Positions 17,589 through 43,608 of a stretch of DNA of 64,000 nucleotides are shown piece after piece. The translations under genes were made by a program, and so were the position numbers. Origin of the DNA: Bacillota bacterium (GTDB taxonomy: Bacteria > Bacillota > Clostridia > Acetivibrionales > Acetivibrionaceae). The notes under the pieces are model-generated. The model worked only from the letters and a program-made list of their open reading frames with translations. It was not told the DNA's origin and ran no database searches. The stretch's first letter is position 1, and each line of letters opens with the position of its first letter. The stretch covers positions 79,316 to 143,315 of the forward strand of contig JAEWSG010000225.1 of NCBI GenBank assembly GCA_023398495.1. The letters run 5' to 3'.

Positions 17589-17615
17589 ATATAATTTAAA
17601 AGAATGTTACTTGTG

Positions 17616-17661
17616 AATAACCTGTTTACGTGTTTAAACGCATAAACGGGTTATTTTTTTG
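17616..17661 (+). terminator. Rho-independent terminator of rsmA
   Basis: AATAACCTGTTTACG…CGCATAAACGGGTTATT followed by T7. Confidence 0.6.
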
Positions 17662-17780
17662 TATTGCAACATATATATAAATATATGAACACAAGGTGTT
17701 AAATGATGAAAATATAAACTTTCTTTAAAAAATAATGACTATAGGCAGGCAACATATTATGAAAAAGTGAGGGGAGAAAA

Positions 17781-19115: not shown

Positions 19116-19173
19116 GTTTTAATTAACTACCGTTTAATTTAAAATACAATAGAAAAGAGAAGGGTGATGTTAC

Positions 19174-19578: not shown

Positions 19579-19637
19579 AAGACTTTGACATTGGACGGAT
19601 AAGTTAGTTGCTTCTATAAATAAAGGAGGTTTCACCC

Positions 19638-21169: not shown

Positions 21170-21739
21170 TTGCTTTATGTATATGTAGGATGTTTGTTTT
21201 TTGGAATATTATTTTCAACTGTATCGTTTTTGCTTGATGGTCACGATTTTGACCTCCATGGGATTCATGCTGACGGGGGGGCTGATTGTCCGGGAATATT
21301 AAATCCATTGGTACTTACAAGCTCAATAACGGTATTTGGCGGGACTGGGATTGTGAGCATGCTGGGTTTAAATATGGGAGGTGTTCAAAGTGCGGTTATT
21401 TCTCTGGTTCTTGCGGCAATTATCGGAGCAGTAATATTTTTTGGAGTTGTAAGGTTTGCATACAACTCGCAATCAAATTCAACGTTTTCTTTGGAGGATT
21501 TAATCGGACTTGATGGTGAAGTTGTTACTCCGATACCGGCAAAGGGTATTGGCGAGATTGTCTATGTTGTTAACGGAGAAAGGCATGGTTTACCTGCAAA
21601 AGGTACATGCAGCGATACAATCGCAAAAGGTGAGATGGTCTGTATAAAGGGGATTTCAGGTAATACAGCTACTGTATCACGCAAGGTAAATATCAGTGTC
21701 CTTGATCTTGATGGAAGTGACGCTGAGGACAATAAATAA
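21170..21739 (+). CDS. NfeD-family membrane protein, short form (membrane helices plus C-terminal OB-fold)
   Basis: TM-rich N-terminus and OB-fold tail 'GEVVTPIPAKGIGEIVYVVNGERHGLPAK'. Immediately upstream of the flotillin gene. Confidence 0.75.
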   Translation: MLYVYVGCLFFGILFSTVSFLLDGHDFDLHGIHADGGADCPGILNPLVLTSSITVFGGTGIVSMLGLNMGGVQSAVISLVLAAIIGAVIFFGVVRFAYNSQSNSTFSLEDLIGLDGEVVTPIPAKGIGEIVYVVNGERHGLPAKGTCSDTIAKGEMVCIKGISGNTATVSRKVNISVLDLDGSDAEDNK

Positions 21740-21762
21740 TAATTTAAGGGAGGTCACTAATT

Positions 21763-23253: not shown

Positions 23254-23258
23254 CATCT

Positions 23259-23290
23259 TAAAGGGCTGCAAGAAATTTGCAGCCCTTTAA
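23259..23290 (+). terminator. Palindromic hairpin after the flotillin gene; U-tract weak
   Basis: AAAGGGCTGCAA gaaat TTGCAGCCCTTT. Confidence 0.4.
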
Positions 23291-23353
23291 ATAAAAACTT
23301 TTACCAAATAAATAAGTATGTTATAATTGTTATAAAAAATAGTAAAAAAGGGA

Positions 23354-24070
23354 GTGACAAATTTGCAAAATTATAATGATTATAATAATTATGATAGTTC
23401 CATAGAAAGAAAGAGTGCTATTGTATCACAGATGGCAAGAGTATTTGGCTGGATGTTTATCGGCTTGATGGTTACAGGATTGACGGCATTATATACGGCT
23501 AACAGTAGTGCCATGACAAATCTTATACACTCAGGTAGATTCACAATTTTTGGGCTGTTTATTCTTGAGCTTGTTTTTGTCTGGTTTATATCAAGAAGAG
23601 CTATGCATATGGAATATGGAACTGCAGCTATTGCGTTTATAATGTATTCCATACTTAATGGTTTGACGTTATCGGTTATATTCTTTGTATATACTTTTGA
23701 CTCAATTGCTTTAGCATTTTTTATGGCAGCTGGTTTTTTTGGTTTTATGAGTGTATATGGTCTTGTAACAAAAACCGACTTGACTTCTATGGGGTCTTTG
23801 CTTATGATGGGGCTTGTCGGGCTGATTATAGTATCTATAGTTAATATTTTTCTTAAAAGTAGTCCTTTAGGATGGATAATCTCAATAGCAGGGGTTGCTA
23901 TTTTCCTTGGACTTACAGCATATGACAGTCAAAAAATCAAAAATATTAGTATGCATTATGCAGGTACTGAAAAAGAAAGAAATGTAGCTATAATTGGTGC
24001 ACTTATTTTATATCTTGATTTTATTAACCTGTTCCTGTACATCTTAAGGATACTTGGTAGAAGAAGGTAA
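23354..24070 (+). CDS. Bax-inhibitor-1/YccA family membrane protein
   Basis: Seven-helix pattern with the conserved C-terminal basic tail, as in BI-1/YetJ. Confidence 0.75.
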   Translation: MTNLQNYNDYNNYDSSIERKSAIVSQMARVFGWMFIGLMVTGLTALYTANSSAMTNLIHSGRFTIFGLFILELVFVWFISRRAMHMEYGTAAIAFIMYSILNGLTLSVIFFVYTFDSIALAFFMAAGFFGFMSVYGLVTKTDLTSMGSLLMMGLVGLIIVSIVNIFLKSSPLGWIISIAGVAIFLGLTAYDSQKIKNISMHYAGTEKERNVAIIGALILYLDFINLFLYILRILGRRR

Positions 24071-24342: not shown

Positions 24343-25677
24343 ATGAGTAAAAAAATAAGAGCTTTTTTATTTGTGATTCTGACTGTTTTGTGCTTATCGG
24401 TTGTTTTTAATTTTAACCTGAATGTACTTAACTCTATTTCAGCCGAGGCGGCCTCATTTGCAAATGGTGCGGATGTGAGCTGGCTGCCGCAGATGGAGGC
24501 TAACGGTTACAAGTTTTATGACGATTATGGTGTGCAAAAAGATTGTCTTCAGATTTTAAAAGAGCATGGGATCAACTCAATAAGGTTGAGAGTATGGGTT
24601 AATCCATCGAAGGACCCTCATAGTGGCCACTGTAGTAAAGAAGAGGTAGTTGAACTGGCTAAAAGGTGTAAAAACATGGGTTTTAGAATTATGATTGATT
24701 TTCACTACAGCGACTCATGGGCAGATCCGGGAAAGCAGAATAAACCAGCAGCATGGGTAGGCCATAACCTTGACCAATTGCTTAGAGATATATACAACCA
24801 CACCTATGACGTTCTAAATGCTTTGAAATCTAATGGAGTTACACCTGAATGGGTTCAAGTGGGAAATGAAACTAATAACGGAATGTTATGGGAAGACGGT
24901 AAGGCTTCATCAAACATGAAAAACTTTGCACAGATGATAAGTAGTGGATATGATGCAGTAAAGGCTGTTTTCCCTGGAACAAAGGTTATTGTACATATAT
25001 CAAATGGACACGATAACAGTCTGTTTAGATGGATATTTGACGGACTAAAAAATAATAATGCAAAATTCGATGTTATAGGCATGTCTTTGTATCCGGAAGT
25101 AGGTAATTGGAGAGATTTGAGCAGCAAGTGCCTGACAAATATGAACGATATGGTATCGAGATACGGCAAAGAAGTTATGATTTGTGAAGTGGGTATGGAT
25201 AATACTGCTGAAAGTGCTGCGAAGGATTTAATTACCGATTTGCTGAAAAAAGTTGCTTCTGTTTCGGGAGGAAAGGGACTTGGGGTATTTTACTGGGAAC
25301 CCCAATGTTATAATTGGGCTTACTATGGAAAGGGTGCATGGAATCTTAACGGAAGACCTACAATTGCTATGGATGCATTTTTGAGCAATAATGCTGGATT
25401 ACCTACTGCTACAGCGACACCAACAGTGAGACCAACTCCGACACCTTCCGGTAATGGTGATTTTGTATATGGAGATCTTAATAATGATAAACTTGTAAAT
25501 TCAATTGACTTTGCTCTTTTGAGAAATTACTTGCTGGGCTATACAAGCGTATTTCCTTATGAAAACGGCATGAAGGCAGCTGATGTTAATCGAAATGGTG
25601 CAGTTGATTCTATTGATTTTGCAATACTAAGAAGTTACTTGTTAGGAATGGTAAAAACGCTTCCAGTAGCACTTTAG
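24343..25677 (+). CDS. Cellulosomal arabinogalactan endo-1,4-beta-galactosidase (GH53) with a C-terminal type-I dockerin
   Basis: GH53 N-terminus 'FANGADVSWLPQMEANGYKFYD…GINSIRLRVWVNP'. Dockerin duplicated Ca-binding segments 'GDLNNDKLVNSIDFALLRNYLLG' and 'ADVNRNGAVDSIDFAILRSYLLG'. Confidence 0.85.
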   Translation: MSKKIRAFLFVILTVLCLSVVFNFNLNVLNSISAEAASFANGADVSWLPQMEANGYKFYDDYGVQKDCLQILKEHGINSIRLRVWVNPSKDPHSGHCSKEEVVELAKRCKNMGFRIMIDFHYSDSWADPGKQNKPAAWVGHNLDQLLRDIYNHTYDVLNALKSNGVTPEWVQVGNETNNGMLWEDGKASSNMKNFAQMISSGYDAVKAVFPGTKVIVHISNGHDNSLFRWIFDGLKNNNAKFDVIGMSLYPEVGNWRDLSSKCLTNMNDMVSRYGKEVMICEVGMDNTAESAAKDLITDLLKKVASVSGGKGLGVFYWEPQCYNWAYYGKGAWNLNGRPTIAMDAFLSNNAGLPTATATPTVRPTPTPSGNGDFVYGDLNNDKLVNSIDFALLRNYLLGYTSVFPYENGMKAADVNRNGAVDSIDFAILRSYLLGMVKTLPVAL

Positions 25678-25881: not shown

Positions 25882-25964
25882 TATAAAAATCACAATTGTA
25901 TTTTGCTCATTAATATACTATAGTAGTAATATGGAAATTATAATTATTTGTGAGGGAGAATAGT

Positions 25965-27665
25965 ATGGTGAGAAGATTTAGAAATATACTTAGTATTATT
26001 ATTTGCATAACGGTGTGCATTTTTTCGGGGTGTACAGTACAGGAAACACCAGATAATAACAAGAAGTTACCAAAAAATGCGATAGAGCTTAAGCTTATGA
26101 TAGGAAGAGATAAACAGTGGATATTTGATGAGGTTCAGAAAATTCTTGACCAAAAGGGTGTTAAAATAAATGATAAGGAAATTTACATAACCACAGAAAA
26201 AGCAGGAACCGGCGAAGCTATGGAGAAAGTTATAGCTAAAGGTGCAGATTATGTTGGTTGGATGCCTGCTTCAAGTACTCATATATTCTGGGCTAATGAG
26301 CGTTGGTACGCAAGCGGTAATACCAAACCGATTGTTGATGAGGATTATACTACAGTCTTTTTGACACCTACGGTTATAGCAATGCAGGAATCATTGGCCA
26401 AGATTATGGGTTATCCGGCTAAAAAAATAGGATGGCAGGATATTTATATGTTGTCTACAGCGGTTGATGGTTGGGGAATGTATGGAAAGTCAATTTTAAA
26501 CCCTGTAAGATTTGCTCATACACATCCTGCAAAATCAAATTCGGGTTTAAATGCTCTGATAGCTGCAGAATATGCATTCAGTGGTAAGAAAAAAGGTCTT
26601 TCAATAGAGGATGTAAGAACAAACAGCAGCAAGCTTAAAGAATTGGAGCAGACAATTGTTCACTATGGAGAAAGTACCTCGCTGCTACAGAAGAAAATAG
26701 TTGAAAAAGGCCCATCATTCATTCAATATGCGGTTTTATATGAGTATATGGTGGCAAACATGAACGTCAATACTCCGGGAAGGGAAAAGCTGGTTGCAAT
26801 CTATCCCAATGAGGGTACAATCTGGGGAGATGTTTGTTTTACCAAAGTTTTTTCCGATAATATTACAGATGAGCAAAGTAAAGCCCTTGATGAAGTGGAA
26901 AAAATTCTTTTATCGGAAGAAATTCAGAAAAAGGGAATGAACGAATACTTTTTCAGACCAGCAGATTCAGGCATACCACTTTCAAATGCAATATCGGTTG
27001 AAAATGGGGTTAACCCGAATGAACCGCAAACTACACTTGAGTTGCCTTCTATTGAGGTAATAAATGAACTCCTTAAAGACTGGCAGACAAACATGAAAAA
27101 GAGAGCCAATGTGCTCTTTGTAATTGATACTTCGGGAAGTATGGAAGGAGAGCCTATAGATAATGCTAAATCTGCAATTCAGAACCTGTTTAACAAGGAC
27201 TTGCAGGAAAAGAATTATACAAGCATTGATGATGAGGATACTATAAGCCTGATGACCTTTAATTCGGAAGTGAGTGATGTATACACAGTTAAAGGTAAGG
27301 AGATAGGCGAGATGAGTTTAGTTGTGGACAATCTGAATGCAAAGGGAAATACTTCTTTGTACGATGCTGTTAATAAAGCTATTACGGAACATCAGAAGCT
27401 AAAAGAAGCTGAAAATGAGAAGAAGATTGAAATTATAGTAGTTCTGTCTGATGGTGCAGATACCAAGAGCAAAATAAATTTCAGTGCATTGACGAGTGTA
27501 CTCGAGCAGGAGGAAGGAAACCTTCCAGTAATAATTACCATAGGTTATGGAAATGTTGATAAGGAGGTTTTAGAAACTATATCTGACCTGACTGGAGGAA
27601 AATACTATGAGGGTGATCCTCAAACCATTAAGCAGGTGTTTGAAGAAATAAAAACATTTTTCTAA
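25965..27665 (+). CDS. Lipoprotein: N-terminal periplasmic-binding-protein-like (anion-binding PBP type 2-like) domain fused to a C-terminal von Willebrand factor A domain
   Basis: Lipobox 'IFSGC'. VWA MIDAS 'VLFVIDTSGSM' plus 'NTSLYDA' and 'VLSDGADT'. N-terminal domain is homologous to 28507-29631. The ATG at 25965 has a GAGGGAG RBS; the ORF-track GTG at 25950 is unlikely. Confidence 0.75.
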   Translation: MVRRFRNILSIIICITVCIFSGCTVQETPDNNKKLPKNAIELKLMIGRDKQWIFDEVQKILDQKGVKINDKEIYITTEKAGTGEAMEKVIAKGADYVGWMPASSTHIFWANERWYASGNTKPIVDEDYTTVFLTPTVIAMQESLAKIMGYPAKKIGWQDIYMLSTAVDGWGMYGKSILNPVRFAHTHPAKSNSGLNALIAAEYAFSGKKKGLSIEDVRTNSSKLKELEQTIVHYGESTSLLQKKIVEKGPSFIQYAVLYEYMVANMNVNTPGREKLVAIYPNEGTIWGDVCFTKVFSDNITDEQSKALDEVEKILLSEEIQKKGMNEYFFRPADSGIPLSNAISVENGVNPNEPQTTLELPSIEVINELLKDWQTNMKKRANVLFVIDTSGSMEGEPIDNAKSAIQNLFNKDLQEKNYTSIDDEDTISLMTFNSEVSDVYTVKGKEIGEMSLVVDNLNAKGNTSLYDAVNKAITEHQKLKEAENEKKIEIIVVLSDGADTKSKINFSALTSVLEQEEGNLPVIITIGYGNVDKEVLETISDLTGGKYYEGDPQTIKQVFEEIKTFF

Positions 27666-30188: not shown

Positions 30189-30217
30189 TTGACAAATCAA
30201 GGTCTATACTATATATT
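30189..30217 (+). promoter_or_regulatory. SigmaA-like promoter TTGACA-N17-TATATT driving the NfeD-flotillin-giant ATPase operon
   Basis: Read directly, about 105 nt upstream of the 30323 ATG. Divergent from the PspC gene. Confidence 0.35.
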
Positions 30218-30322: not shown

Positions 30323-30946
30323 ATGCTCGAATTGCTTAAGACATCTATAACAGGTGTAAATCTTATTCCCACTACTCTTCTGGGAATAGTAATCTTGTAC
30401 TGGATCATAGTTATAATTGGAGCTATTGATATCGATTTCTTCGATTTTGACCTTGACCTACCGGAAGGTGATCTTGTTAGTAGCCCGTTTTACGATTTCC
30501 TGGGATTCTTGAATATCGGCGATCTTCCTTTTATGCTTGTATTAAGTATTTTCAGCTTGTCCTTCTGGGTAATTGCCATGATTATAAGTGTTTTATCCTT
30601 TGTATCTGCAACGTGGATAATTGCCCTTCTGCTAATACCAAATGTAGTGGTTAGTTTGTTTGTTACAAAGGCGGTTACACAGCCATTAAAGGGCTTATTC
30701 AGAGGAATATTGAAGGATGTAGGAAGCGAGACAAAAATTGAGGGTCAGATTTGTACTGTTTTGTGCGATATTACTTATGGACGTTTAGGTCAGGCTGAGA
30801 TAGATAGAGTTGGGTCGTCTATTCTGATCAATGTAAAGGTTGACGATGAGCAAGAGGCGATGTGCAAGGGAGATAAGGCATTTGTTGTAAAAAAAGATCT
30901 GGATAAGGATTGCTATATTATTAAAAAATTTGAAGGAGTGAGGTAA
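30323..30946 (+). CDS. NfeD-like membrane protein (YqiJ-like): N-terminal TM helices plus C-terminal OB-fold
   Basis: TM-rich N-half. C-terminal 'GQICTVLCDITYGRLGQAEIDRVGSSILINVKVDD' OB-fold like NfeD. 5-nt gap to the flotillin gene. Confidence 0.7.
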   Translation: MLELLKTSITGVNLIPTTLLGIVILYWIIVIIGAIDIDFFDFDLDLPEGDLVSSPFYDFLGFLNIGDLPFMLVLSIFSLSFWVIAMIISVLSFVSATWIIALLLIPNVVVSLFVTKAVTQPLKGLFRGILKDVGSETKIEGQICTVLCDITYGRLGQAEIDRVGSSILINVKVDDEQEAMCKGDKAFVVKKDLDKDCYIIKKFEGVR

Positions 30947-30950
30947 AAAG

Positions 30951-33050
30951 ATGCCTGAAATAACACAAATTATAGTAGTTGCTGTAGTTGCTAGTGTCAT
31001 CATTATTTTTGGGATGCTTGCATTGTTTTCAAGGTTTTACCGCAAGGTAGACCAGGGTAAGGTTATTGTACGTAATGGTGTCGGAGGTCCCGTAGTATCC
31101 TTTGGGGGCATACTGGTTGTTCCTATACTGCATCATGCAGAGGTTATGAATATTTCGGTAAAAAGAGTTGAGATTGCCAGAGAAGGTAAGGACGGCCTTG
31201 TTTGTAAGGATAATTTGAGAGCTGATATAAGAGTTGCATTTTTTGTGCGTGTAAACCAAACAAAGGAAGATGTATTGAAAGTTGCACAACTAATAGGTTG
31301 TGCCAAGGCCTCGGATCCAGAAACATTGATGGAGTTCTTTGATGCCAAATTTTCCGAAGCACTAAAAACTGTGGGTAAGCAGTTTGACTTCGTACAACTC
31401 TATACTGAAAGAGAAAAATTTAAAGAAGAGATACTTCAGATTATAGGTACAGATCTTAATGGATATGCACTTGACGATGCTGCTATTGATTACCTTGAGC
31501 AGACTGATGTGGGTAAGTTGAATAGCAGCAATATATTGGACTCCGAAGGTATCAAAAAGATTACAGAGTTGACTGCAAAGCAGTTGGTGCTTGCAAACCA
31601 GATAGAACGTGACAAGCAAAAGACCATCAAACAGCAGGATATTGCTGCTAGAGAAGCAATTCTGGAACTCGAAAAACAGAACCAGGAAGCTGAAGCACGT
31701 CAAGCAAGGGAAATTGCCATTATCAGAGCCCGAGAACAGGCGGAAGCCGACAAAGTAGCACAGGAAGAACGCCTTAAGGCTGAAATGGCCCGCATAAAGA
31801 CAGAAGAAGAGATTTCCGTTGCAGAAGAAAATAAACAGAGACAGATTATTGTTGCACAAAAATCAAAAGAAAGTACGGAAGTAATTGAAGCCGAACGTGT
31901 TGATAGAAAACGATTGCTCGAAAAGACAGAAAAAGATAAGCTTGTGGAGCTTGCTGAAATAGAAAAGCTCAAGTCGGTAGAAGAAGAGAAGAAGAACATC
32001 CAGACAGTTATCCGTGAGAGGGTTGCAGTTGAAAAGGATGTAGTTATTGAAGAAGAAAAGATCAAGGATACCCGTGCAATTGCTGAAGCAGAGCGTATTA
32101 AGGCTGTGGCACTTAAGAAAGCTGAAGAGGAAGCTGAGATGAAGTTAATTCTGGAAGTTAAAACCGCAGAAGCATCAAAACAAGCCTCGGAGAAACTTGC
32201 AGAACAGAAAATAATTGAGGCTGAGGCAAAACTTAAATCCTCAGAAAAAGAGTCAGAGGCAATAAAGACCCTAGTTGATGCAGAAGTGCTGCAGGAAGCT
32301 ACAAAGGGACTTGCTGAGGCTCGGGTTATTGAAGCAAAGGCAAATGCTATTGAAAAAGAAGGTGCTTCAAAGGCAAAGGTTTTAGAGACTACTGCCCAAG
32401 CTGAAGCAAAGGCTATAGAAATGAGAGCACTCGCTGAAGCTAAAGGCGAAGAAGCAAAGGTAAATGTTAAGGAAAAGGCAGGAACTGTTGAAGCTGATAT
32501 TATGTCCAAGAAATTCCGTGCAGAAGCCGAAGGCATTGCTGAAAAGGCAAACAGCATGAGGGCACTTGATGAAGCCGGCAGATCCCATGAAGAGTTCAAG
32601 CTAAGACTTGAAAAAGAAAAAGAAATTGAGCTTGCGAATATCAATATCCAGAAGGATATTGCAGAGTCACAGGCTTCAGTTATCAGAGAGGCTCTTAAAA
32701 CTGCCAAGATTGATATTGTTGGAGGCGAGACCATGTTCTTTGACAAGATCATAGGTAGTGTTTCCCAAGGTAAGTCGTTTGATCGCATGGTAAACAGCAG
32801 TGAAGTACTCAAGGATATCAAAGATACATTTATTGTGGGTGATCCTGAATATTTCAGATCCCAGTTACAGAACTTTACTTCAAGGTTTAACATAACCTCG
32901 GAGGATTTAAAGAACTTAACCATTTCCGGTGCTATAAATAAAATGATGCTTAAGGCAGATTCAAAGGATATTCCTGTTCTCTCAAAGCTTCTAGAAGCTG
33001 TGGAAAAGGCAGGTTTTGCAAGCCAATCTGCTTCATTAATAGAAAAGTAG
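30951..33050 (+). CDS. Flotillin-like SPFH/band-7 protein (YqiK type) with a very long E/A/K-rich coiled coil
   Basis: N-terminal TM, SPFH core 'KVIVRNGVGGPVVSFGGILVVPILH…', about 400 aa of EA repeats. Confidence 0.85.
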   Translation: MPEITQIIVVAVVASVIIIFGMLALFSRFYRKVDQGKVIVRNGVGGPVVSFGGILVVPILHHAEVMNISVKRVEIAREGKDGLVCKDNLRADIRVAFFVRVNQTKEDVLKVAQLIGCAKASDPETLMEFFDAKFSEALKTVGKQFDFVQLYTEREKFKEEILQIIGTDLNGYALDDAAIDYLEQTDVGKLNSSNILDSEGIKKITELTAKQLVLANQIERDKQKTIKQQDIAAREAILELEKQNQEAEARQAREIAIIRAREQAEADKVAQEERLKAEMARIKTEEEISVAEENKQRQIIVAQKSKESTEVIEAERVDRKRLLEKTEKDKLVELAEIEKLKSVEEEKKNIQTVIRERVAVEKDVVIEEEKIKDTRAIAEAERIKAVALKKAEEEAEMKLILEVKTAEASKQASEKLAEQKIIEAEAKLKSSEKESEAIKTLVDAEVLQEATKGLAEARVIEAKANAIEKEGASKAKVLETTAQAEAKAIEMRALAEAKGEEAKVNVKEKAGTVEADIMSKKFRAEAEGIAEKANSMRALDEAGRSHEEFKLRLEKEKEIELANINIQKDIAESQASVIREALKTAKIDIVGGETMFFDKIIGSVSQGKSFDRMVNSSEVLKDIKDTFIVGDPEYFRSQLQNFTSRFNITSEDLKNLTISGAINKMMLKADSKDIPVLSKLLEAVEKAGFASQSASLIEK

Positions 33051-33075
33051 AATTAAACAATAAAACGAGGTGTAA

Positions 33076-36000
33076 GTGACTGTGGATGAAGTCAAAAAAG
33101 GCGAAAAGGCCGAACAAACCGTACAAAAAACTGAGGGATTGGAAAACGGCACATATGAAGTTATAAAAAACCGCTTGATCAAACATGGTAATGACCTCAA
33201 AGAGCGTCTTGAAAAGCTGAATGACGCCAGAAAAAAGGTTTTTGGTTCAATTGATACAACTATTATTGGAAGTGAAAGGCTTATCACAGACAATAACTGT
33301 GTCCCACGAGATATGGTTCCCGTGGGAACTTCCTTTATTTTCGGATATAATGTCTACATGGGGCTAAAGGCGAAGGTGGAGCTTGAGGATGTTTTTTCCA
33401 TGTATGAATATAAGGATCACACCTTTCAAAGGATTAGCCCTGACTTAATTAAAGATAAGCAGTTTTTAGCCGATTTTGCAGAGTTGTACACATATTACAA
33501 AAATACTTTTTTTGCAAAATTTTCATTAATTGAACCCCACCTTTATATGATATTTCAGACCGGCAAGAGTGCTCAGGACATAAAAGCTTTTAAATGGCTG
33601 ATTGACGATGGTAAACTGACATACATTGACAACCGGAGCGATCACGAGGTAAGGTTTCAGAACAAGAGTGAATTTGATTGGATAAGGGTAAGAAGGGAAG
33701 ACCACAGAGATGGGATGTTTCCTCATGTCTCCATTCAGGATAGAGTGTTTGTAGAGACTTTAGGAGGCGACCTTACCATCAAGGTTGAAAATAACACCGA
33801 CAGTGGTAAGGGGATATACTCTGAGGCTGTAGAGGATAAAGATCAAACACTTGATGATGCGGAAATATATTATACACTTCTGGGAAATATTGTATTGCTC
33901 AAGATCAGGCCTTACAAGGAAAAAGATTTCAGGTACTTTGTCTTTAATGACAAGCTTAAAAGCGTTGTACGTATTGACGATATAAAGGATGCCTGCATGT
34001 TGCTTCCTGATGATCATGGTCTCATTTTTCCAAAAGGTTATTACCTTAAAAGCGGAGAATACAAACTATTTGATGTGCCAGTTGACAATTGCATCTTTGA
34101 GCAGAAGGATGAAGCACCTAATGGTGAAGACTATCAGTATTTCTTTTATAACATTGACAGTGGGTCATATCTTATTTACTCATACAATCTTATTGAACAG
34201 ACGGTAGAAACTCCTATCGTGTGCAGTGGTTTTTCTCACTTTGAAAACGGAGAAATGATTGTATTTAAAGCTTCCGATGAGCCGAGGAAAAATCATGCCG
34301 TTCAGATGTGGCAGACACCTTATATGGGCAAAAATTATGTGGTAGAGAAAAAGGACGATTCTATTCTGTTCAAAATAGGAAATAAGGATATAGTTCACTG
34401 CATGGCGGATTGCAGAGTTTTATACAGCCTGATTCAAAAGGGTGAAAGTTATTCGGATATCTATTTAGATATTGTGAAGGAAGCAACCCATATAATAGAT
34501 TCCTACTTCTGGATCTCAAAGGAAGAAGCTTTTGACATAAAACCTGTACTGGCAAACATAAAAGAAGCATCTTCCTCAGCAGTTGCCGAATATGAAAAAG
34601 TCACAAAGATCAGGAATGCTACTGCTTTACAAATCAGTGCAGTGGAGGAAAAAACTCAAAAGCTGCTTAAGGAAATTGAGTATGGTAATTTTGACAGTGT
34701 TGATGATTATGTACAGGTTCTTACCAGCGTAAGAAATGTCAGGGGAGAGATTGTTTCACTTAAGGACTTGCGATATACCAATCTGACTCTTATTGATTCT
34801 TTAGAGGCAAAGGTAAAGGAAAAGAACGAACTGTTTTCGCTTAAATGTGTGGAATTTCTCCTGCAACCTGAAGGCTTGAAGCCATATATAGACAGGGTGG
34901 TTGAGCATCAGCAAAGAATTGACGGAGTTGACAGGACAGCCACAGGTAAAGAACTATCCGATGCGATGGCAAAAACTTCAACAGACCTTGAAATGCTAAT
35001 TGATATTGTAAGTAATTTCAATATTGAAGATGCTACAAAGGCAACGGAGATCATTGAAAATATATCCTCAATATATTCTCAGTTAAATCAGGCAAAAGCA
35101 AGGCTCAAAACCCGTATGGGAGAAATGGCAAGTGTTGAAGGAACTGCTAAATTTATCTCACAGATGAAGCTTTTAGATCAGGCTGTAGTAAATTACCTTG
35201 ATATAGCTGATACAACAGAAAAGTGTGAGGATTACTTAAGTAAGGTAATGGTTCAGATAGAAGAACTTGAAGGAAAGTTTGCCGACTTTGACGACTATGT
35301 TGTAAAATTGTCAGAAAAGCGTGAGGAACTCTATAATGCTTTTGAGGCGAGGAAACAGATGCTTCTGGAAAACAGAAGCAAAAAAGTGACTGCTCTCCTC
35401 AATGCTTCTGACCGGATATTAAATGGAATTGTAAACAGACTCAAAAACTTTGACACAGTTAACGAGATAAACGGCTATTTTGCATCGGATATAATGATCG
35501 GGAAGGTTCGGGACACCATTGATCAGCTTGAGGCTCTTGGAGATACTGTTAAAGCTGATGAAATTCAGGGAAGGCTTAAGACCATTAAGGAAGATGCGGT
35601 TCGTCAGCTCAAAGACAGGCAGGAGCTGTATGTAGGAGGAAAAAATGTTATAAAATTCGGTAACCGTTATTTCTCTGTTAATACCCAAAAGCTGGATTTG
35701 TCATTGGTGCAGAAGGATGGGGAACTTTATTTTCATATATCCGGTACTGATTTTTGGGACAAATTGACAGATGAAAGGCTTAACAAATTTCGCCATGTTT
35801 GGGATCAAAGTCTGGTATCTGAGAACAATGAGGTGTACCGAGCCGAATACCTGGCTTATAAGATTTTTATGGCTGCTTTGAAGAGAGAGACTGTATCTAT
35901 TGACCAGCTTCATACTTATTCAGATGACCAGCTCTTGCTGTTTATACAGAAGTTTATGGAGCCGAGGTATCAGGAAGCTTATACCAAAGGGGTTCACGAT

Positions 36001-38109
36001 GCAGATTGCCAAGTTATACTCAGAGCTTTAGTGAATCTGCATACAAACATTGATCTGCTGATATATAATTCTAGGGCAAGAGCTATGGCACAGCTTTTCT
36101 GGTCACGCTTCGGGAAGCCTGTAAAAGACAAATTCAGTTTGCGGCTTAAAGAATTGGCTAAAGTATCCGGGTTTTTTAAGACGGAACCGGATTTGAGTGC
36201 TTATGTTCCGGAAATGATAAGTGCCATGCAGGAAGCATTTTCAACTATAACTTTTGTGGATAAAGAACTTATAGGAGAGGCTTCCTTATACCTTTGCAAT
36301 GAATTGATGAGAGGCGACAGATTTGTAATAAGCCTTGAGGCAGAAGAAATATACAGCACTTTTATGTCGCACCTGAAAGAAAAGAGGGCTTTAGAGCAGT
36401 TCGACAAATCGATGAAGAATATTGAAAATGATCTGGAAGGTTTGTTCTACCTTGTTCGTGAATGGCTTAATGCATTTTTTAAGGACACAGGTATGAGCAA
36501 ATCAAAAGATGTAATATATGAAGTGATTGTTCTACTGATTTTAAACAGCTTCAGTAGCTCAAGTGTGATAAAAACAAGGACAGAACTCGAAGTAACAGGC
36601 CTTGTTGGAAGTCATCCAATTATTAAAGATAGTAAATTTATATCGTCATACACGGAATTTCTGGAAAAGCTTAATATATATGAAAAGACAACGGTTAAAG
36701 ATTATATCGAATTTCAGAATCTGAAGAAGGAGCTTACGCAAAATTATAGAGATGAACTCAGGTTGGATGAATTTAAATCCGATGTTCTTTCTTCCTTTGT
36801 CAGGAATAAGCTTATAGACAAGGTTTATTTACCGCTTATCGGGGATAATCTTGCAAAACAGATTGGTGTGGCAGGTGAGGATAAGAGAACTGATTTAATG
36901 GGAATGTTGTTGCTTATATCTCCACCAGGCTACGGAAAAACTACACTTATGGAATACATTGCGAGCCGTTTGGGAATAACCATGGTAAAGGTAAACGGGC
37001 CTGCTATCGGAAATGAGGTTACTTCTCTTGACCCAGCACTGGCAAAGAGTACCGGGGCAAAAGAGGAAATAAAGAAACTTAATCTGGCTTTTAAGATGGG
37101 AAATAATGTAATGATTTACATTGATGATATACAGCATTGTAACCCTGAGTTTTTACAGAAGTTCATTCCGCTCTGTGATGGTCAGCGCAGGATTGAAGGT
37201 GTATATAAAGGGGTTGGCCAGACCTATGACCTTAGAGGTAAAAAAGTTGCCGTTGTTATGGCTGGAAATCCTTATACTGAAAGCGGTTCCAAATTTCAGA
37301 TACCCGATATGCTTGCAAACAGGGCAGACGTATACAACCTTGGTGACATGCTTAGAGAAAATGAGGATGCGTTTATGCTCAGCTACATTGAAAACGGTCT
37401 TACTTCAAACCCTGTTTTAAACAAACTTGCAACTAAAAGTCAGAAAGATGTTTATACTCTTATCGAGATTGCGAAAAGCGGTGTCCAGGAAGGACTTGAT
37501 TTTGAAGGCAACTATACAGCAGAAGAGATTAGTGAATTTGTTGCAGTCATAAAAAAGCTGTTCAAGGTTCGAGATATTGTGCTTAAAATAAACATGGAAT
37601 ACATCAGGTCTGCAGCTCAGGCTGATGAATACAGGAATGAACCAGCGTTTAAACTTCAGGGTTCATATAGAAATATGAATAAGATTGCTGAGAAGGTATT
37701 ACCTGTTTTAAATGATGAAGAGCTTGATGCTTTGATCTTAGGGACATATGAAAACGATGCACAAACTCTGACAACAGGCTCAGAGGCTAACATGCTCAAA
37801 TGGAAGGAACTTGTGGGTTGTCTTAATGAGCAGGAAGCAGTCCGTTGGCAGGAAATTAAGAGCGTTTTTAATAAGAACAAACTTGTTAAGGGTGACGATA
37901 AGCTTGGGCAGGCTGTAATGATGCTTGGTGAGTTTAGTGAAAAACTCGGAATAATAAGCGGGGTATTGGCCGAGGGCGTGGAGAAACATAGAAATGAAGC
38001 ATCAACACTTTCTAACCTGGTTGATGCAGTGACACAGTTAAAAGAGGTTCATGGAATGGGAGTTACAAGCTTTTTGGAGCGATTATCACAAAAGAAAAAG
38101 GATTATTAG
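33076..38109 (+). CDS. Giant 1677-aa protein: N-terminal beta-rich domain, long helical middle, and a classical AAA+ ATPase module near the C-terminus (Walker A 'SPPGYGKTT' at about aa 1270; Walker B / sensor 'VMIYIDDIQHCNP' at about aa 1345)
   Basis: Uninterrupted 5 kb ORF with a GAGGTG RBS, 26 nt after the flotillin stop. The motifs resemble the RuvB/DnaA-clade 'IDEIHRxN'. No family assignable by eye. Confidence 0.8.
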   Translation: MTVDEVKKGEKAEQTVQKTEGLENGTYEVIKNRLIKHGNDLKERLEKLNDARKKVFGSIDTTIIGSERLITDNNCVPRDMVPVGTSFIFGYNVYMGLKAKVELEDVFSMYEYKDHTFQRISPDLIKDKQFLADFAELYTYYKNTFFAKFSLIEPHLYMIFQTGKSAQDIKAFKWLIDDGKLTYIDNRSDHEVRFQNKSEFDWIRVRREDHRDGMFPHVSIQDRVFVETLGGDLTIKVENNTDSGKGIYSEAVEDKDQTLDDAEIYYTLLGNIVLLKIRPYKEKDFRYFVFNDKLKSVVRIDDIKDACMLLPDDHGLIFPKGYYLKSGEYKLFDVPVDNCIFEQKDEAPNGEDYQYFFYNIDSGSYLIYSYNLIEQTVETPIVCSGFSHFENGEMIVFKASDEPRKNHAVQMWQTPYMGKNYVVEKKDDSILFKIGNKDIVHCMADCRVLYSLIQKGESYSDIYLDIVKEATHIIDSYFWISKEEAFDIKPVLANIKEASSSAVAEYEKVTKIRNATALQISAVEEKTQKLLKEIEYGNFDSVDDYVQVLTSVRNVRGEIVSLKDLRYTNLTLIDSLEAKVKEKNELFSLKCVEFLLQPEGLKPYIDRVVEHQQRIDGVDRTATGKELSDAMAKTSTDLEMLIDIVSNFNIEDATKATEIIENISSIYSQLNQAKARLKTRMGEMASVEGTAKFISQMKLLDQAVVNYLDIADTTEKCEDYLSKVMVQIEELEGKFADFDDYVVKLSEKREELYNAFEARKQMLLENRSKKVTALLNASDRILNGIVNRLKNFDTVNEINGYFASDIMIGKVRDTIDQLEALGDTVKADEIQGRLKTIKEDAVRQLKDRQELYVGGKNVIKFGNRYFSVNTQKLDLSLVQKDGELYFHISGTDFWDKLTDERLNKFRHVWDQSLVSENNEVYRAEYLAYKIFMAALKRETVSIDQLHTYSDDQLLLFIQKFMEPRYQEAYTKGVHDADCQVILRALVNLHTNIDLLIYNSRARAMAQLFWSRFGKPVKDKFSLRLKELAKVSGFFKTEPDLSAYVPEMISAMQEAFSTITFVDKELIGEASLYLCNELMRGDRFVISLEAEEIYSTFMSHLKEKRALEQFDKSMKNIENDLEGLFYLVREWLNAFFKDTGMSKSKDVIYEVIVLLILNSFSSSSVIKTRTELEVTGLVGSHPIIKDSKFISSYTEFLEKLNIYEKTTVKDYIEFQNLKKELTQNYRDELRLDEFKSDVLSSFVRNKLIDKVYLPLIGDNLAKQIGVAGEDKRTDLMGMLLLISPPGYGKTTLMEYIASRLGITMVKVNGPAIGNEVTSLDPALAKSTGAKEEIKKLNLAFKMGNNVMIYIDDIQHCNPEFLQKFIPLCDGQRRIEGVYKGVGQTYDLRGKKVAVVMAGNPYTESGSKFQIPDMLANRADVYNLGDMLRENEDAFMLSYIENGLTSNPVLNKLATKSQKDVYTLIEIAKSGVQEGLDFEGNYTAEEISEFVAVIKKLFKVRDIVLKINMEYIRSAAQADEYRNEPAFKLQGSYRNMNKIAEKVLPVLNDEELDALILGTYENDAQTLTTGSEANMLKWKELVGCLNEQEAVRWQEIKSVFNKNKLVKGDDKLGQAVMMLGEFSEKLGIISGVLAEGVEKHRNEASTLSNLVDAVTQLKEVHGMGVTSFLERLSQKKKDY

Positions 38110-38385
38110 TGCTTTTTTGTTATTCCTTAGTTATTCATTTTTTGATTCTGCCCTGTGAGAATAAAATTTCGCAGGGTGGTTTTACGTCTGGTGATTTGTT
38201 GTTTGTATAAAAGTTGTATTGGTTGGATGATTAAGTAAATTGATTACCATAGAAATAATTATGGTTTTTGTGTATTATTGAATTATAGTATATTTATTTA
38301 TGTAAATTATATTAGCATTGTTTTATAATGTACATGAAATTATTAATTTTTACGAATTGTTTTCTATGAAGGGAGAATGATGTAG

Positions 38386-39144
38386 TTGGATGTGCTAAAC
38401 CTTTTGAACTTTAATAAAAATAAAGTTGGTGTTAAAACTTCTAACGACGAGTTCATTTTCAGACTAAGGCAGATCAAGGAAGGCGACAAGCAATTAAGAG
38501 AAGACTTTATATCCAGTTATACTCCTTTCATGTTAAAAACCGCATCAAATATTATAGGCAGGTATATTGATATAAAGAATAGTGATGAATACAGCATTGC
38601 ATTATCGGCATTCAACGAGGCAATAGATTGTTATGATATGACAAAAAACTATAACTTTCTTTTGTTTAGCGAACACGTTATAAAAAAGCGACTTATTGAT
38701 CATATCAGAAGAAGTAAAAGGAATAAGGAACTTCCGTTTTCTTATTTTGAAAATGACAATGAAATGCTCGAAAAATATATAATTCCAGATTCAAGTATTA
38801 CCTTTGAAGATGTTGAGATAAGGGAAGAAATTATAGAATATAAAAAAACTTTGGAAGGTTATGGTATTACATTTGTTGATTTGATATCAAACGTACCAAA
38901 ACATGAAGATTCAAGAAGACTATGCATAAGAATTGCAAAACTTCTTGCAGATGACGAAGAATTGTTTAGATTACTACAGAAGTATAAAAACATTCCAAGG
39001 ACTGAACTTAAGAAAAAGGCAAAGGTACATGGAAGAACAATAGGAAACCATAGAAAGTATATTATAGCATTATGTTTGGTATTAAAAAGTAACCTTGAGC
39101 TTTCGAAGAGATATTTAAATAGTACAGAGAAAGGAGGAAGTTAA
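38386..39144 (+). CDS. sigI: Alternative sigma factor SigI
   Basis: Region-2/region-4 pattern like B. subtilis/C. thermocellum SigI ('YTPFMLKTASN…'). TTG start with a GAAGGGAG RBS. Followed by rsgI. Confidence 0.8.
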   Translation: MDVLNLLNFNKNKVGVKTSNDEFIFRLRQIKEGDKQLREDFISSYTPFMLKTASNIIGRYIDIKNSDEYSIALSAFNEAIDCYDMTKNYNFLLFSEHVIKKRLIDHIRRSKRNKELPFSYFENDNEMLEKYIIPDSSITFEDVEIREEIIEYKKTLEGYGITFVDLISNVPKHEDSRRLCIRIAKLLADDEELFRLLQKYKNIPRTELKKKAKVHGRTIGNHRKYIIALCLVLKSNLELSKRYLNSTEKGGS

Positions 39145-39146
39145 TT

Positions 39147-40604
39147 ATGAATAACCTTGGGGTTATATACGATATTAAAAATGATAAAGCAGTTATTCTT
39201 ACACGTAACAGCAATTTTATAATGATAAGCAGGCGTGAAGACATGTTTTTAGGTCAGCAGGTAACATTTGACGATAAGGATATTTATAGACCTAAAAAAA
39301 GTATGCATAGGGTTGTTGCACTATCTGCAAGTATAGCTGCCATATTTGTACTAATGTTTTTGTTTTCTCGTTTTGAACCTGCTGGTGCCAATGTGTTTGG
39401 ATATGTTGCTTTAGACATAAATCCAAGTATGGAATTTTGTATTGATAAGGATTTTGCAGTATTGGAAGCAGTTGCACTTAATGATGATGGGGCAAAATTA
39501 ATAGATGATGTTGAGGTTAAAAATAAGACAATAGAAAGTGTTATTATAGAAATTATAAAACAATCGAAGAGTGGTGGCTATATCAAGACAGGAGAAAAGA
39601 CTGATGTCTTGATTTCGGCTACGTTTATAGATGATAAGAAGGGAAAAAGTGCCGGTAATGAAGCTGACAAGGTAAATTTAGAAAAGCTTCTGGCGGAAAT
39701 CAAGAAAGACATATATGGTTACGATAGCAGTATTGTTGGCAGAATGTTACAGGTCACCTCTATGGAAAGAGAAGCAGCACAGAAGTATGGTGTTTCTATG
39801 GGAAAATACTATTTGTTCCTTAAGTCCAAGGACCAAGGTAAAGATATATCGATTGATGAATTAAGTTATATGAAGGTAACGGAATTAATTGATGGTATTG
39901 ATATCGAAATTGAACCTCAATCTCCTATCCCTGCTAAAGATCCTCGTTATACATTGTTGCCTGACTATACATCATCAAATAAGCTCAAACCGGAACAAAT
40001 ACCTACAGGTGAGCCGTCATCAAACCAGACACTATCACCGAAGCCGGAAGTTACACCAGCTTTACCTGAACCAATTTTTACGGATGCCAATACATTCAGC
40101 CCAACCTCGATACCTACACCTTTGGTTCAGAATCCAAAGGGTGATGTTGAAAAAAAATTGAAAATCAAGCATTACAGTGATGATCACAATGCTTTCTCAA
40201 AGGCTATACGTTGGGATTTTGTTGTTGAGAATACAGGAGATAATACAATTGATTTAAAAGATGTTAAGGTTAGATATTATTATATGGATGAAACAGACAA
40301 GAGTGTGAATTTTATGCCATATTTTTATAGCCTGGGAAATGAAAAAGCAGACATTAACGGTAAGGTACAAAAAGTTTCTGGGTTAAAAAATGCCAATAGA
40401 TACCTTGAGGTAACTTTTAATAAGGGCAGTGTTTCACCGGGAGAAACTGCATGGCTTTTTGGTGCATTGGTGCGGGAAGATTGGAGCGAGTTTAACCAGA
40501 AAGATGACTATTCATTTAACTCCGAAGCAAAAACATTTTCTGATTGGAACAGAATGACTGCATATTTATCCGATAGGCTTGTTTGGGGAATTGAGCCCGA
40601 ATAA
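39147..40604 (+). CDS. rsgI: Anti-sigma-I factor RsgI with a C-terminal CBM3 sensor domain
   Basis: RsgI N-domain, single TM 'VVALSASIAAIFVLMFLF', PT-rich linker, CBM3 'VKVRYYYMDETDKSVNF…WSEFNQKDDYSFNSEAKTFSDWNRMTAYLSDRLVWG'. Confidence 0.85.
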   Translation: MNNLGVIYDIKNDKAVILTRNSNFIMISRREDMFLGQQVTFDDKDIYRPKKSMHRVVALSASIAAIFVLMFLFSRFEPAGANVFGYVALDINPSMEFCIDKDFAVLEAVALNDDGAKLIDDVEVKNKTIESVIIEIIKQSKSGGYIKTGEKTDVLISATFIDDKKGKSAGNEADKVNLEKLLAEIKKDIYGYDSSIVGRMLQVTSMEREAAQKYGVSMGKYYLFLKSKDQGKDISIDELSYMKVTELIDGIDIEIEPQSPIPAKDPRYTLLPDYTSSNKLKPEQIPTGEPSSNQTLSPKPEVTPALPEPIFTDANTFSPTSIPTPLVQNPKGDVEKKLKIKHYSDDHNAFSKAIRWDFVVENTGDNTIDLKDVKVRYYYMDETDKSVNFMPYFYSLGNEKADINGKVQKVSGLKNANRYLEVTFNKGSVSPGETAWLFGALVREDWSEFNQKDDYSFNSEAKTFSDWNRMTAYLSDRLVWGIEPE

Positions 40605-41460: not shown

Positions 41461-43608
41461 ATGAAAAAAACGGCTGTATTTTTATTAGTTTTTTCATTAT
41501 TGACAGCATCGATACCAGCTGCATCAGTTAGTGCAGCATCTGGTGATGGTTACAAGGAGAAATTTACTGAGTTGTATGACGTAATACATGACCCATCAAC
41601 TGGGTACTTTGATTCAGAGGGAATACCTTATCACTCAGTTGAAACATTGTGTGTTGAAGCACCTGACTATGGTCATGAGTCAACATCCGAGGCTGCAAGT
41701 TATTATCTCTGGCTTGAGGCTATGAACGGTAAAATTAATAATGAGTGGGATGGTATAGGTAAAGCTTGGGATGTAATAGAAAAGTACTTTATTCCGTCTG
41801 ATTCAATCCAGAAGGGTATGGATAAGTATAAGTCTTCAGCACCTGGAGGATATGCTAGTGAGCACCCACTCCCAGACAACTATCCATCTATGGGAGAAAG
41901 TATAGCAGTTGGTTCAGACCCAATACACCAAGAACTGGTTTCAGCATACAACACATATTCAATGTACGGTATGCATTGGTTGGTTGACGTTGATAACTGG
42001 TATGGTTACGGAACGGGTACAGATTGTACATATATAAATACTTACCAAAGAGGAGAGCAGGAATCAGTTTTTGAAACAGTTCCTCATCCTTCAATTGAGA
42101 CCTTTAAATACGGTGGAACACAAGGATTTGCAGACCTGTTTATGGCTGGATCTACAGTTCCTAAGTGGGCATTCACTACTGCTTCGGATGCTGACGGACG
42201 TGTAATACAGGTACAGTATTGGGCAGATAAGTGGGCAGATGAAAATGGTGTTAGCTTAAGTACTTATAACGCAAAAGCTGCTAAGCTGGGTGACTACTTA
42301 AGATACTCATTGTTTGACAAATACTTCATGAAAATTGGAGCACAAGCTAAGACTCCTGCTTCAGGATATGGTTCTTGTCATTATCTCCTTGCTTGGTACT
42401 ATGCTTGGGGTGGTTCAAATACAGGTGACTGGTCATGGAAGATTGGATGTAGCCATGTTCACTGGGGTTATCAAGCTCCTTTTGCAGCTTACGTATTGGC
42501 TAATGAAGCAGACTTCAAACCAAAGTCATCAAATGGTTCTAAAGACTGGGCAACAAGTTATCAGAGACAATTGGAATTATACACATACCTGCAATCTGCA
42601 GAAGGCGGTATAGCAGGTGGAGTTACAAACTCTGTTGGAGGACAATACAAGCCTTATACTAGTAATTCAACTTTCTACGATATGGTTTATGATTACGCTC
42701 CTGTTTACCGTGACCCACCAAGTAACAACTGGTTCGGTATGCAAGCATGGTCAATGCAACGTATGTGTGAAGTTTACTATGAAACTGGAAATGAATTGGC
42801 TAAAGAGCTTTGTGACAAGTGGGTTGCTTGGGCAGAAAGTGAGTGTACAGTTTCAGGCGATACATGGAAGATTCCTTCAACGTTGTCATGGACTGGTGAG
42901 CCAGACAAGTGGACAGGTTCAAGATCAGACAATTCCAACCTTCATGTTGAAGTAGCTAATTATGGTAGTGACATAGGTATTACAGGATCAGTTTCAAATG
43001 CATTTATGTTCTACGATCAAGCTACTCAAAAGTGGGGAGGAGATACTGCATTAGGTAAGAAAGCAGCTGACAAGGCTCTTGCATTGTTGAATGTAGTATG
43101 GGATAATGCTCGTGACGAGAAAGGTGTAGGTATTACTGAATCTAACGGATCATTAAGCCGTATGTTTACACAAACAGTTTACATTCCATCAGGATGGACT
43201 GGAAAAATGCCTAATGGTGATGTAATTAAGTCTGGCATTAAGTTTATAGACATTCGTTCAAAATATAAGGATGATCCTTGGTATGAAGGCGTTAAGAACC
43301 AAACTGAGGATAATCTCTTTGAGTTCAAACTTCATAGATTCTGGCATCAGGTTGACTATGCAGTAGCTTTAGGTGTAGCTGGAATGTTCGGTTACGATGG
43401 TGGAGGTACTACTGATGCTGGTGACGTAGATGGTAACGGAAAAGTTAATGCTATTGACTTTGCGTTGATGAGACAAGATTTGCTCGGACAAATTAACTTT
43501 ACTCCTGCACAGGAGAAAGCAGCAGATGTTGATGGTAATGGAATATTCAATTCAATCGACTTTGCTAAGATGAGACAGTTCTTGCTCGGACAGATTAAAT
43601 CATTTTAA
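41461..43608 (+). CDS. Cellulosomal GH48 exoglucanase (Cel48S-like) with a C-terminal type-I dockerin
   Basis: 'GYFDSEGIPYHSVETLCVEAPDYGHESTSEAASYYLWLEAM' is a GH48 signature. Dockerin 'DVDGNGKVNAIDFALMRQDLLG' and 'DVDGNGIFNSIDFAKMRQFLLG'. Signal peptide. GGGAGGA RBS. Confidence 0.9.
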   Translation: MKKTAVFLLVFSLLTASIPAASVSAASGDGYKEKFTELYDVIHDPSTGYFDSEGIPYHSVETLCVEAPDYGHESTSEAASYYLWLEAMNGKINNEWDGIGKAWDVIEKYFIPSDSIQKGMDKYKSSAPGGYASEHPLPDNYPSMGESIAVGSDPIHQELVSAYNTYSMYGMHWLVDVDNWYGYGTGTDCTYINTYQRGEQESVFETVPHPSIETFKYGGTQGFADLFMAGSTVPKWAFTTASDADGRVIQVQYWADKWADENGVSLSTYNAKAAKLGDYLRYSLFDKYFMKIGAQAKTPASGYGSCHYLLAWYYAWGGSNTGDWSWKIGCSHVHWGYQAPFAAYVLANEADFKPKSSNGSKDWATSYQRQLELYTYLQSAEGGIAGGVTNSVGGQYKPYTSNSTFYDMVYDYAPVYRDPPSNNWFGMQAWSMQRMCEVYYETGNELAKELCDKWVAWAESECTVSGDTWKIPSTLSWTGEPDKWTGSRSDNSNLHVEVANYGSDIGITGSVSNAFMFYDQATQKWGGDTALGKKAADKALALLNVVWDNARDEKGVGITESNGSLSRMFTQTVYIPSGWTGKMPNGDVIKSGIKFIDIRSKYKDDPWYEGVKNQTEDNLFEFKLHRFWHQVDYAVALGVAGMFGYDGGGTTDAGDVDGNGKVNAIDFALMRQDLLGQINFTPAQEKAADVDGNGIFNSIDFAKMRQFLLGQIKSF

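Follow-up and report, generated by a model that had tools for sequence, protein, structure and literature searches.

The closest described counterpart of the locus considered here is the operon type of Ravi et al. 2024 (mSystems 9:e00847-23, PMC11237479; preprint 2020), in which a CesT/Tir-PspA dyad is accompanied by three further proteins, a YqiJ/YuaF protein, a Band-7/flotillin and a protein with beta-propeller, coiled-coil and AAA+ regions, and which also occurs in an abbreviated form without PspA. Ravi et al. infer ATP-dependent sub-membrane dynamics for these operons and favour a chaperone-like assembly role (PMC11237479). Their Table S3 example from Dokdonia donghaensis (ANH61663.1) has the same gene order and architectures as the locus in the stretch of DNA analysed here, a window of 64,000 nucleotides (nt) from a Bacillota bacterium of the Acetivibrionaceae (assembly GCA_023398495.1, contig JAEWSG010000225.1, positions 79,316 to 143,315), where three consecutive genes encode a YqiJ-like membrane protein (gene 1), a YqiK-type flotillin (gene 2) and a giant ATPase (gene 3; Table 1).

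Parts of this arrangement recur in other known systems. The yqiJ-yqiK pair of Escherichia coli (an SPFH2 or p-flotillin with an NfeD-like partner; PMC2636767) is homologous to genes 1 and 2 and identical in order, but has no ATPase downstream, unlike the window locus. The pspA-ydjGHI(L) and yuaF-floT operons of Bacillus subtilis also link PspA genetically to an SPFH protein, and a flotillin to an NfeD-like partner, again without the ATPase seen in the window. By analogy, Vps4/ESCRT-III and HflK/C-FtsH likewise join an AAA+ protein to a membrane scaffold of the ESCRT-III (PspA) or SPFH type, although Vps4 and FtsH are classical AAA proteins with an MIT or protease domain, whereas the giant is MoxR-like and has neither.

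In comparison with ANH61663.1 through the published listing, the window locus contains all three of the YqiJ, flotillin and giant ATPase components, and gene 1 encodes a protein with the several transmembrane segments typical of the YqiJ/YuaF member. The CesT/Tir-PspA dyad that defines the full form is absent, and the locus is therefore assigned to the abbreviated, PspA-less form, with a divergent PspC-domain gene beside it instead. This identification of the components and of the system is held with high confidence. The best overall explanation blends it with a role for the giant in remodelling membrane scaffolds and is given a probability of roughly 0.55. The operon type is already known, and the window locus adds an example and detail, not a discovery; the initial annotation of the window knew of no description of a third component of this kind, a view overturned by Ravi et al. 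2024 and by the Pfam families DUF3686 and DUF7902. A counterpart of the giant with 100% identity is already present in public databases, on a contig of identical gene order. Ravi et al. 2024 give no experimental function, AAA+ clade assignment or structural model.

Neither membrane component is readily assigned by standard profiles. Pfam (E<=10) and PDB sequence searches with the YqiJ-like protein returned nothing usable, its match to Pfam YqiJ_N (E=0.0036) falling below the cutoff, and the flotillin had no Pfam Band_7 match even at E<=10 (the PF01145 gathering threshold was not reached) and no match in the PDB sequence search. The identities of both were therefore taken from comparison with E. 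coli YqiJ and YqiK. The flotillin aligns with YqiK by BLASTP at 30% identity over 450 amino acids (aa) (E=5e-44), covering the transmembrane segment, the SPFH domain and the coiled coil, and a profile of 13 gene 1 orthologues matches YqiJ by hhalign with a probability of 93.6% (E=2.2e-7, 131 columns) in an alignment that spans both the transmembrane region and the C-terminal domain. Because of these two matches, genes 1 and 2 are assigned by homology to a yqiJK-type pair, the SPFH2 class of Hinderhofer et al. 2009 (PMC2636767), which bears out the earlier description of an NfeD-like protein paired with a YqiK-type flotillin. The putative SPFH membership of the 699-aa protein rests on transitive homology, through YqiK and through database relatives that are named flotillin or YqiK, some of which carry PF01145.

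The YqiJ-like protein is nearly equal in length to its E. coli counterpart (207 versus 209 aa), and hydropathy places its hydrophobic segments at aa 7-46 and 59-120, consistent with several transmembrane segments; compared directly, it does not match the other NfeD of the window. The flotillin has a single transmembrane segment by hydropathy (aa 1-31) and is ~150 aa longer than E. coli YqiK, the excess lying in the coiled-coil and C-terminal part, and it is too divergent for Pfam Band_7. It resembles the FloT encoded in the window only in the coiled coil, which is long and rich in Glu, Ala and Lys. Two antisense open reading frames (ORFs) within the flotillin gene (31700-32923, - strand, 407 aa; 31362-31859, - strand, 165 aa) are rich in Ser, Ala and Phe and look like artefacts of the codons of this Glu/Ala/Lys-rich coiled coil, not genes.

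The giant is assembled from a DUF3686 region (E=4.8e-178, aa 40-478), a DUF7902 region (E=1.1e-23, aa 600-681) and an AAA+ core (AAA E=5e-8, AAA_5 E=2.4e-6, aa 1278-1404), of which AAA_5 passes the Pfam cutoff. For aa 1-500, an AlphaFold2 model (predicted local distance difference test, pLDDT, 86.4; predicted template-modelling score, pTM, 0.84) contains ~28 beta strands within aa 62-413. A Foldseek search with this model against the PDB gave 202 matches at E<=1e-3, and the 50 matches listed almost all contain beta-propellers, including LGI1 EPTP, Elp1, prolyl oligopeptidase, LRRK2 WD40 and the clathrin N-domain, but with low template-modelling scores; the N-domain is for this reason modelled as propeller-like, without a close solved relative among the matches listed. 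Helicity of the middle region, which Ravi et al. term a coiled coil (PMC11237479), is suggested by its composition, with 6 Pro and 24 Gly in aa 500-1130 and Pro/Gly-free stretches of up to 72 aa, and its edges are helical in the models that flank this span. The C-terminal region carries the conserved motifs SAAQADEYR and QGSYRNMN, and pLDDT drops to ~55-60 over the last 70 residues. Pfam, the models and the fold searches thus agree with the architecture first read from the sequence, with an N-domain rich in beta strands, helices in the middle and an AAA+ core placed towards the C-terminus, and the AAA+ motifs quoted at that time were located at aa 1283-1290, 1347-1354 and 1393-1402.

Pfam and NCBI names for the family ('ATPase involved in DNA repair', 'DNA repair ATPase', 'Holliday junction resolvasome helicase subunit') would make the giant a DNA-repair ATPase, and weak RuvB_N and RuvB matches point the same way, but a full-length RuvB-type AAA+ protein with its DNA-interacting winged-helix domain did not emerge above the family cutoffs, and we regard a role in DNA repair as highly improbable. 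The initial annotation had named a known family, such as a DNA-repair ATPase, and missing linkage to SPFH genes as what would count against its interpretation; the family is indeed catalogued, under the name 'DNA repair ATPase', but the SPFH linkage is strongly conserved.

Walker A, Walker B, sensor 1, a conserved Arg and a fold closest to CbbQ and NorQ place the AAA+ core in the MoxR / AAA_5 clade; the full-length family profile matched PDB sequences in the Walker A region only. Three catalytic residues (K1288, N1398 and R1416) are invariant in 53 aligned sequences from two phyla, which makes a functional ATPase probable. The Walker B Asp-Asp (D1350-D1351) is present in 53/53 aligned family members, in place of the usual Asp-Glu of MoxR proteins, and its IDDIQH presumably resembles the Walker B of DnaA. 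The giant differs from the MoxR family at large (CbbQ, NorQ, RavA and the giant relatives midasin and dynein) in having a single AAA+ domain at its C-terminal end, and to our knowledge an N-terminal propeller followed by a long helical arm has no precedent among MoxR proteins. Whereas a VWA protein is the usual partner of a MoxR ATPase, the giant has no conserved VWA/MIDAS partner: genes for VWA proteins lie close to the module in the window clade and in a Pirellulaceae locus (L006), but at none of the other loci examined.

These VWA genes bear on the main rival explanation, in which the giant would be a quality-control or assembly chaperone for membrane proteins, acting on clients corralled by the YqiJ/flotillin scaffold (in their insertion, extraction or maturation) by analogy with HflK/C-FtsH or with the MoxR-VWA systems CbbQO and NorQD. 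The kinship of the AAA+ core to CbbQ/NorQ and its AAA_5 match fit such a role, as does the chaperone-like function favoured by Ravi et al. (PMC11237479), and VWA genes lie nearby in two unrelated contexts, in the window at 25950-27665 (571 aa) and in Pirellulaceae L006 at 15252-19628 (- strand, 1458 aa, convergent). However, neither a VWA gene nor any other client candidate is conserved across the loci, the two VWA adjacencies may be due to chance, and Pfam finds no protease or other effector domain in the giant. A client chaperone is rated unlikely, but the evidence cannot separate it from scaffold remodelling.

The arrangement of the three genes is consistent with an operon. A program-made ORF list confirmed the ORF coordinates of the initial annotation and the co-directional + strand orientation of all three genes; the tight spacing reported there also stands, but the gaps are 4 nt between gene 1 and the flotillin gene (TAA aaag ATG) and 25 nt from the flotillin stop codon to the GTG of the giant, not 5 and 26 nt. 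The 3' end of gene 1 reads ...GGAGTGAGGTAA and the flotillin ATG follows 4 bases on, so that the ribosome-binding site of the flotillin falls within gene 1, where its Shine-Dalgarno sequence GGAGTGAGG sits in the 3' end; GAGGTG stands before the GTG start of the giant. The top promoter-like score between 29600 and 38500 (11/12) is tied between the match upstream of gene 1 and a second match at 35308-35337, inside gene 3. A terminator-like hairpin follows the giant, and a pattern scan found no comparable hairpin between the three genes. Promoter and terminator are pattern matches only, in total no more numerous than in shuffled sequence. The GC content and skew of the locus match its surroundings.

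The same three genes recur together in distant bacteria. Scanning one genome per species with the giant N-domain yielded 20 loci from Acetivibrio-like Clostridia, Planctomycetota (Pirellulaceae, Aureliella) and Bacteroidota (Niabella, Cryomorphaceae, Saprospiraceae, Bernardetiaceae). A flotillin gene lies directly upstream of the giant in 16/20 loci, from all three phyla, and a YqiJ-like gene was detected upstream of the flotillin in 15 of those 16, the upstream DNA of the remaining locus (L007) being too short to tell. No flotillin gene was detected in the other four, three Saprospiraceae loci (L011-L013, the first with only ~630 bp of upstream DNA) and L020. The neighbourhood comparison proposed with the initial annotation, which asked for linkage of the giant to a flotillin across Clostridia, therefore finds that linkage beyond Clostridia as well, and the tight module described there is borne out by the order and spacing kept in relatives (2 and 6 nt in the Pirellulaceae module). 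Clustering of all neighbours leaves the giant, the flotillin and the YqiJ-like protein as the only families common to several phyla and found no fourth gene conserved across phyla, and Pfam assigns assorted neighbours to unrelated families (CsrA, TMEM175, RDD, response regulator, TerB). A search begun from a Clostridium beijerinckii flotillin homologue also recovers all three module genes, and an exhaustive search for the giant family gave 744 clusters at 50% identity, mostly of 1600-1930 aa.

This conservation weighs on the idea that the adjacency is incidental and that the yqiJK pair and the giant function independently. In favour of that idea, E. coli yqiJK functions with no ATPase of this kind, and the Saprospiraceae loci carry a truncated paralogue of the giant without a flotillin; order and tight spacing are nevertheless kept across three phyla while the other neighbours change, and incidental adjacency, already disfavoured, is considered very unlikely. 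The Saprospiraceae paralogue (~1040-1054 aa) consists of DUF3686 and DUF7902 without AAA+ (L011 633-3779, L012 9899-13021, L013 9863-13027), and neither a flotillin nor a YqiJ gene was found upstream of it in ~10 kb of L012 and L013 or in the only ~630 bp available in L011. The L012 paralogue is followed by a gene for a Por_Secre_tail protein.

Some of the individual loci show irregularities of their own. At 116-6986 of L007, a Bacteroidetes metagenome-assembled genome (MAG), the giant is split into pieces of 933 and 714 aa by a 506-aa AAA_22/AAA_35 ORF that may be a mobile-element insertion. The giant is frameshifted into several ORFs in Niabella ginsengisoli (L016, 9917-14699), where the flotillin is affected too, and in N. 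defluvii (L019, 9896-14792), which could reflect pseudogenisation or long-read sequencing errors. A contig of an Acinetobacter pittii MAG (L017) carries a module with identities and aligned spans to the window proteins nearly as in the Niabella locus L015; judged only through the matches of each locus to the window proteins, this suggests a Niabella-like module. As a probable binning contaminant, the contig should not be taken to show that Acinetobacter carries the module.

Module proteins are ~50-60% identical between phyla (about 50-56% for the flotillin across the three), which suggests that the module has spread horizontally as a unit. Horizontal transfer, suggested by the patchy cross-phylum distribution at ~50% identity, would also suit an anti-phage or other conflict system; a link to phage defence had been raised by the initial annotation. 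In such a system the SPFH/AAA+ module would detect infection at the membrane and set off abortive infection, and a phospholipase D (HKD) gene present in some proteobacterial versions of the operon could provide an effector (PMC11237479). Several results disagree with this proposal. PADLOC-DB v2 gives no significant defence match, its alignments to IetA and mad8 being marginal and limited to the P-loop (E~1e-3, 30 residues); viral contigs, scanned once with a single sequence and once with an alignment, yielded no relatives; the genes around the module are of housekeeping or cellulosome type, and their synteny is kept among relatives; and no nuclease, toxin or other effector was found in or adjoining the module at any locus examined. 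With PADLOC, viral contigs and neighbouring genes all negative, the phage-defence suggestion is unsupported and is judged improbable.

The neighbours that do recur in part of the distribution belong to the phage-shock (Psp) response. In the window, the divergent gene encodes a 68-aa protein with one hydrophobic segment (aa ~24-59) and a clear PspC domain (82.5 bits against a Pfam cutoff of 25). Its NCBIfam pspC matches fall below the equivalog cutoffs for E. coli-type PspC, and it is therefore classed by sequence as a PspC-domain protein and not as a PspC orthologue. The PspC-domain gene adjoins the module only in close Acetivibrio-like relatives (divergent upstream, L001-L004) and in a more distant Bacillota MAG (L014, convergent downstream). 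In four Bacteroidota loci (L008, L015, L016 and L019; Niabella, Cryomorphaceae) the operon is instead extended upstream by a CesT_Tir_1/YbjN-like gene and by PspA/IM30 (E=8e-40), and it stands behind a divergent helix-turn-helix regulator; these loci reproduce the full form of Ravi et al. Since two different Psp components, PspC and PspA, are linked to the module in two phyla, its sequence context supports an association with envelope stress, and the hint first drawn from the PspC neighbour is strengthened by the independent CesT/Tir and PspA genes of Bacteroidota. In the Niabella operons a 145-aa ORF without a Pfam match lies between PspA and the YqiJ-like gene (L015 6470-6907, L019 6595-7029), an additional, unassigned member of the full form. 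A tblastn search of the window with Bacteroidota queries, a weak test across phyla, found neither the CesT/Tir nor the 145-aa gene.

Taken as a whole, the preferred reading would run as follows. The three genes would be co-transcribed and translationally coupled, as the 4- and 25-nt gaps and the promoter and terminator pattern matches suggest. On the cytoplasmic side of the membrane, the YqiJ-like protein and the membrane-anchored flotillin would assemble into a large oligomeric scaffold, as homology to YqiJ/YqiK and knowledge of SPFH/NfeD proteins imply. The giant would be cytoplasmic; its propeller and helical arm may attach it to this scaffold or to PspA polymers, and its AAA+ domain may mediate oligomerisation, steps suggested by its fold and gene linkage. 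ATP turnover might then assemble, disassemble or reshape the flotillin/PspA lattice in envelope stress, in a chaperone-like manner analogous to that of MoxR ATPases, of Vps4 on ESCRT-III and of FtsH inside HflK/C. The distribution of membrane segments, present in the YqiJ-like protein and the flotillin and with no convincing segment in the giant by hydropathy, fits a scaffold served by a soluble ATPase. This specific mechanism, in which the giant would use ATP to remodel flotillin/PspA scaffolds beneath the membrane during envelope stress, is offered tentatively, at somewhat less than even odds.

It should be noted that several points weigh against scaffold remodelling. The physical interaction, oligomeric state and substrate of the giant are inferred. 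The module loci have no conserved VWA partner, and the AAA-less Saprospiraceae paralogue implies that the propeller/helical module can function outside the operon context. Adjacency to PspC is confined to one clade, and a tblastn search of the 64-kb window with a Bacteroidota PspA query, a weak test across phyla, returned no PspA. The Walker B Asp-Asp could mean slow or regulated, switch-like hydrolysis and not a processive motor. Literature searches found no mention of DUF3686 or PF12458 and no experimental follow-up on any member; those on 'DNA repair ATPase' with YqiK/flotillin and on flotillin with MoxR returned nothing relevant.

Table 1. Features of the three-gene module and of its surroundings, in window coordinates.
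Feature	Position	Strand	Remarks
YqiJ-type NfeD-like membrane protein (gene 1), 207 aa, ATG start	30323..30946	+	N-terminal transmembrane helices, C-terminal soluble domain
YqiK-type flotillin (gene 2), 699 aa, ATG start	30951..33050	+	N-terminal transmembrane segment, divergent SPFH, coiled coil, C-terminal tail
Giant soluble ATPase (gene 3), 1677 aa, GTG start	33076..38109	+	DUF3686 + DUF7902 + MoxR-like AAA+
Giant, N-terminal module	33133..34572	+	Predicted helix aa 20-56, beta-propeller-like aa 62-413, helical bundle aa 430-499
Giant, helical middle region, aa ~500-1261	34573..36858	+	Includes DUF7902, 34873-35118
Giant, MoxR-like AAA+ core	36859..37575	+	Walker A, Walker B, sensor-1, conserved Arg
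Walker A, K1288, PPGYGKTT	36922-36945	+	aa 1283-1290
Walker B, D1350-D1351, IYIDDIQH	37114-37137	+	aa 1347-1354
Sensor-1, N1398, VVMAGNPYTE	37252-37281	+	aa 1393-1402
Conserved R1416	37312-37335	+	
Giant, C-terminal helical region, aa ~1501-1677	37576..38106	+	Helices H352-H546 of C-terminal model
PspC-domain membrane protein, 68 aa	29862..30068	-	Divergent neighbour; Pfam PspC E=1.8e-23
Sigma-70-like promoter match, TTGACA-17-TATATT	30189..30217	+	11/12 consensus, upstream of gene 1
Intrinsic-terminator-like hairpin, 13-bp stem	38148..38179	+	39 nt past the stop codon of the giant
Weak NfeD, 189 aa	21170-21739		Pfam E=5.6e-4, below cutoff
FloT-type flotillin, 496 aa	21763-23253		Band_7 (E=2e-31) + Flot

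Upstream of the module, the window contains a second SPFH system (21170-24070), in which an NfeD-FloT pair precedes a 238-aa membrane protein of the Bax1-I/YccA type. The second NfeD-flotillin pair reported in the initial annotation at 21170-23253 is thus real and of the FloT type, with a weak NfeD match. Cellulosomal genes lie at 24343-25677, 38386-40604 and 41461-43608, encoding a GH53-dockerin protein, a sigma factor with an RsgI-type anti-sigma carrying CBM3, and a GH48-dockerin protein. Because such genes surround the module, the host is identified from its gene content as a cellulolytic Acetivibrio-like clostridium; its closest genomes are uncultured Acetivibrio MAGs.

This analysis adds to the description of the operon type a MoxR-clade assignment for the giant, the invariant Asp-Asp of its Walker B, a propeller model, the adjacency to PspC and the truncated AAA-less paralogue, and it shows that 'DNA repair ATPase', a name in wide use in databases, lacks support. 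An ATPase linked genetically to a flotillin, and to PspA as well in some phyla, provides an experimental handle on the role of flotillin/NfeD pairs and on the recycling of PspA without a Vps4-like ATPase. Gene linkage and fold also suggest a bolder possibility, which we consider doubtful, that the giant founds a new class of membrane-remodelling motors in prokaryotes. Here a MoxR/midasin-like ring with a helical arm and a propeller would grip the flotillin cage and/or PspA (ESCRT-III-type) polymers, and a slow, switch-like ATPase cycle, in keeping with the invariant Walker B Asp-Asp, would open, close or recycle these scaffolds at the damaged membrane. Should this be true, the giant would be the first dedicated energy source for bacterial flotillins and a bacterial counterpart of Vps4-ESCRT-III.

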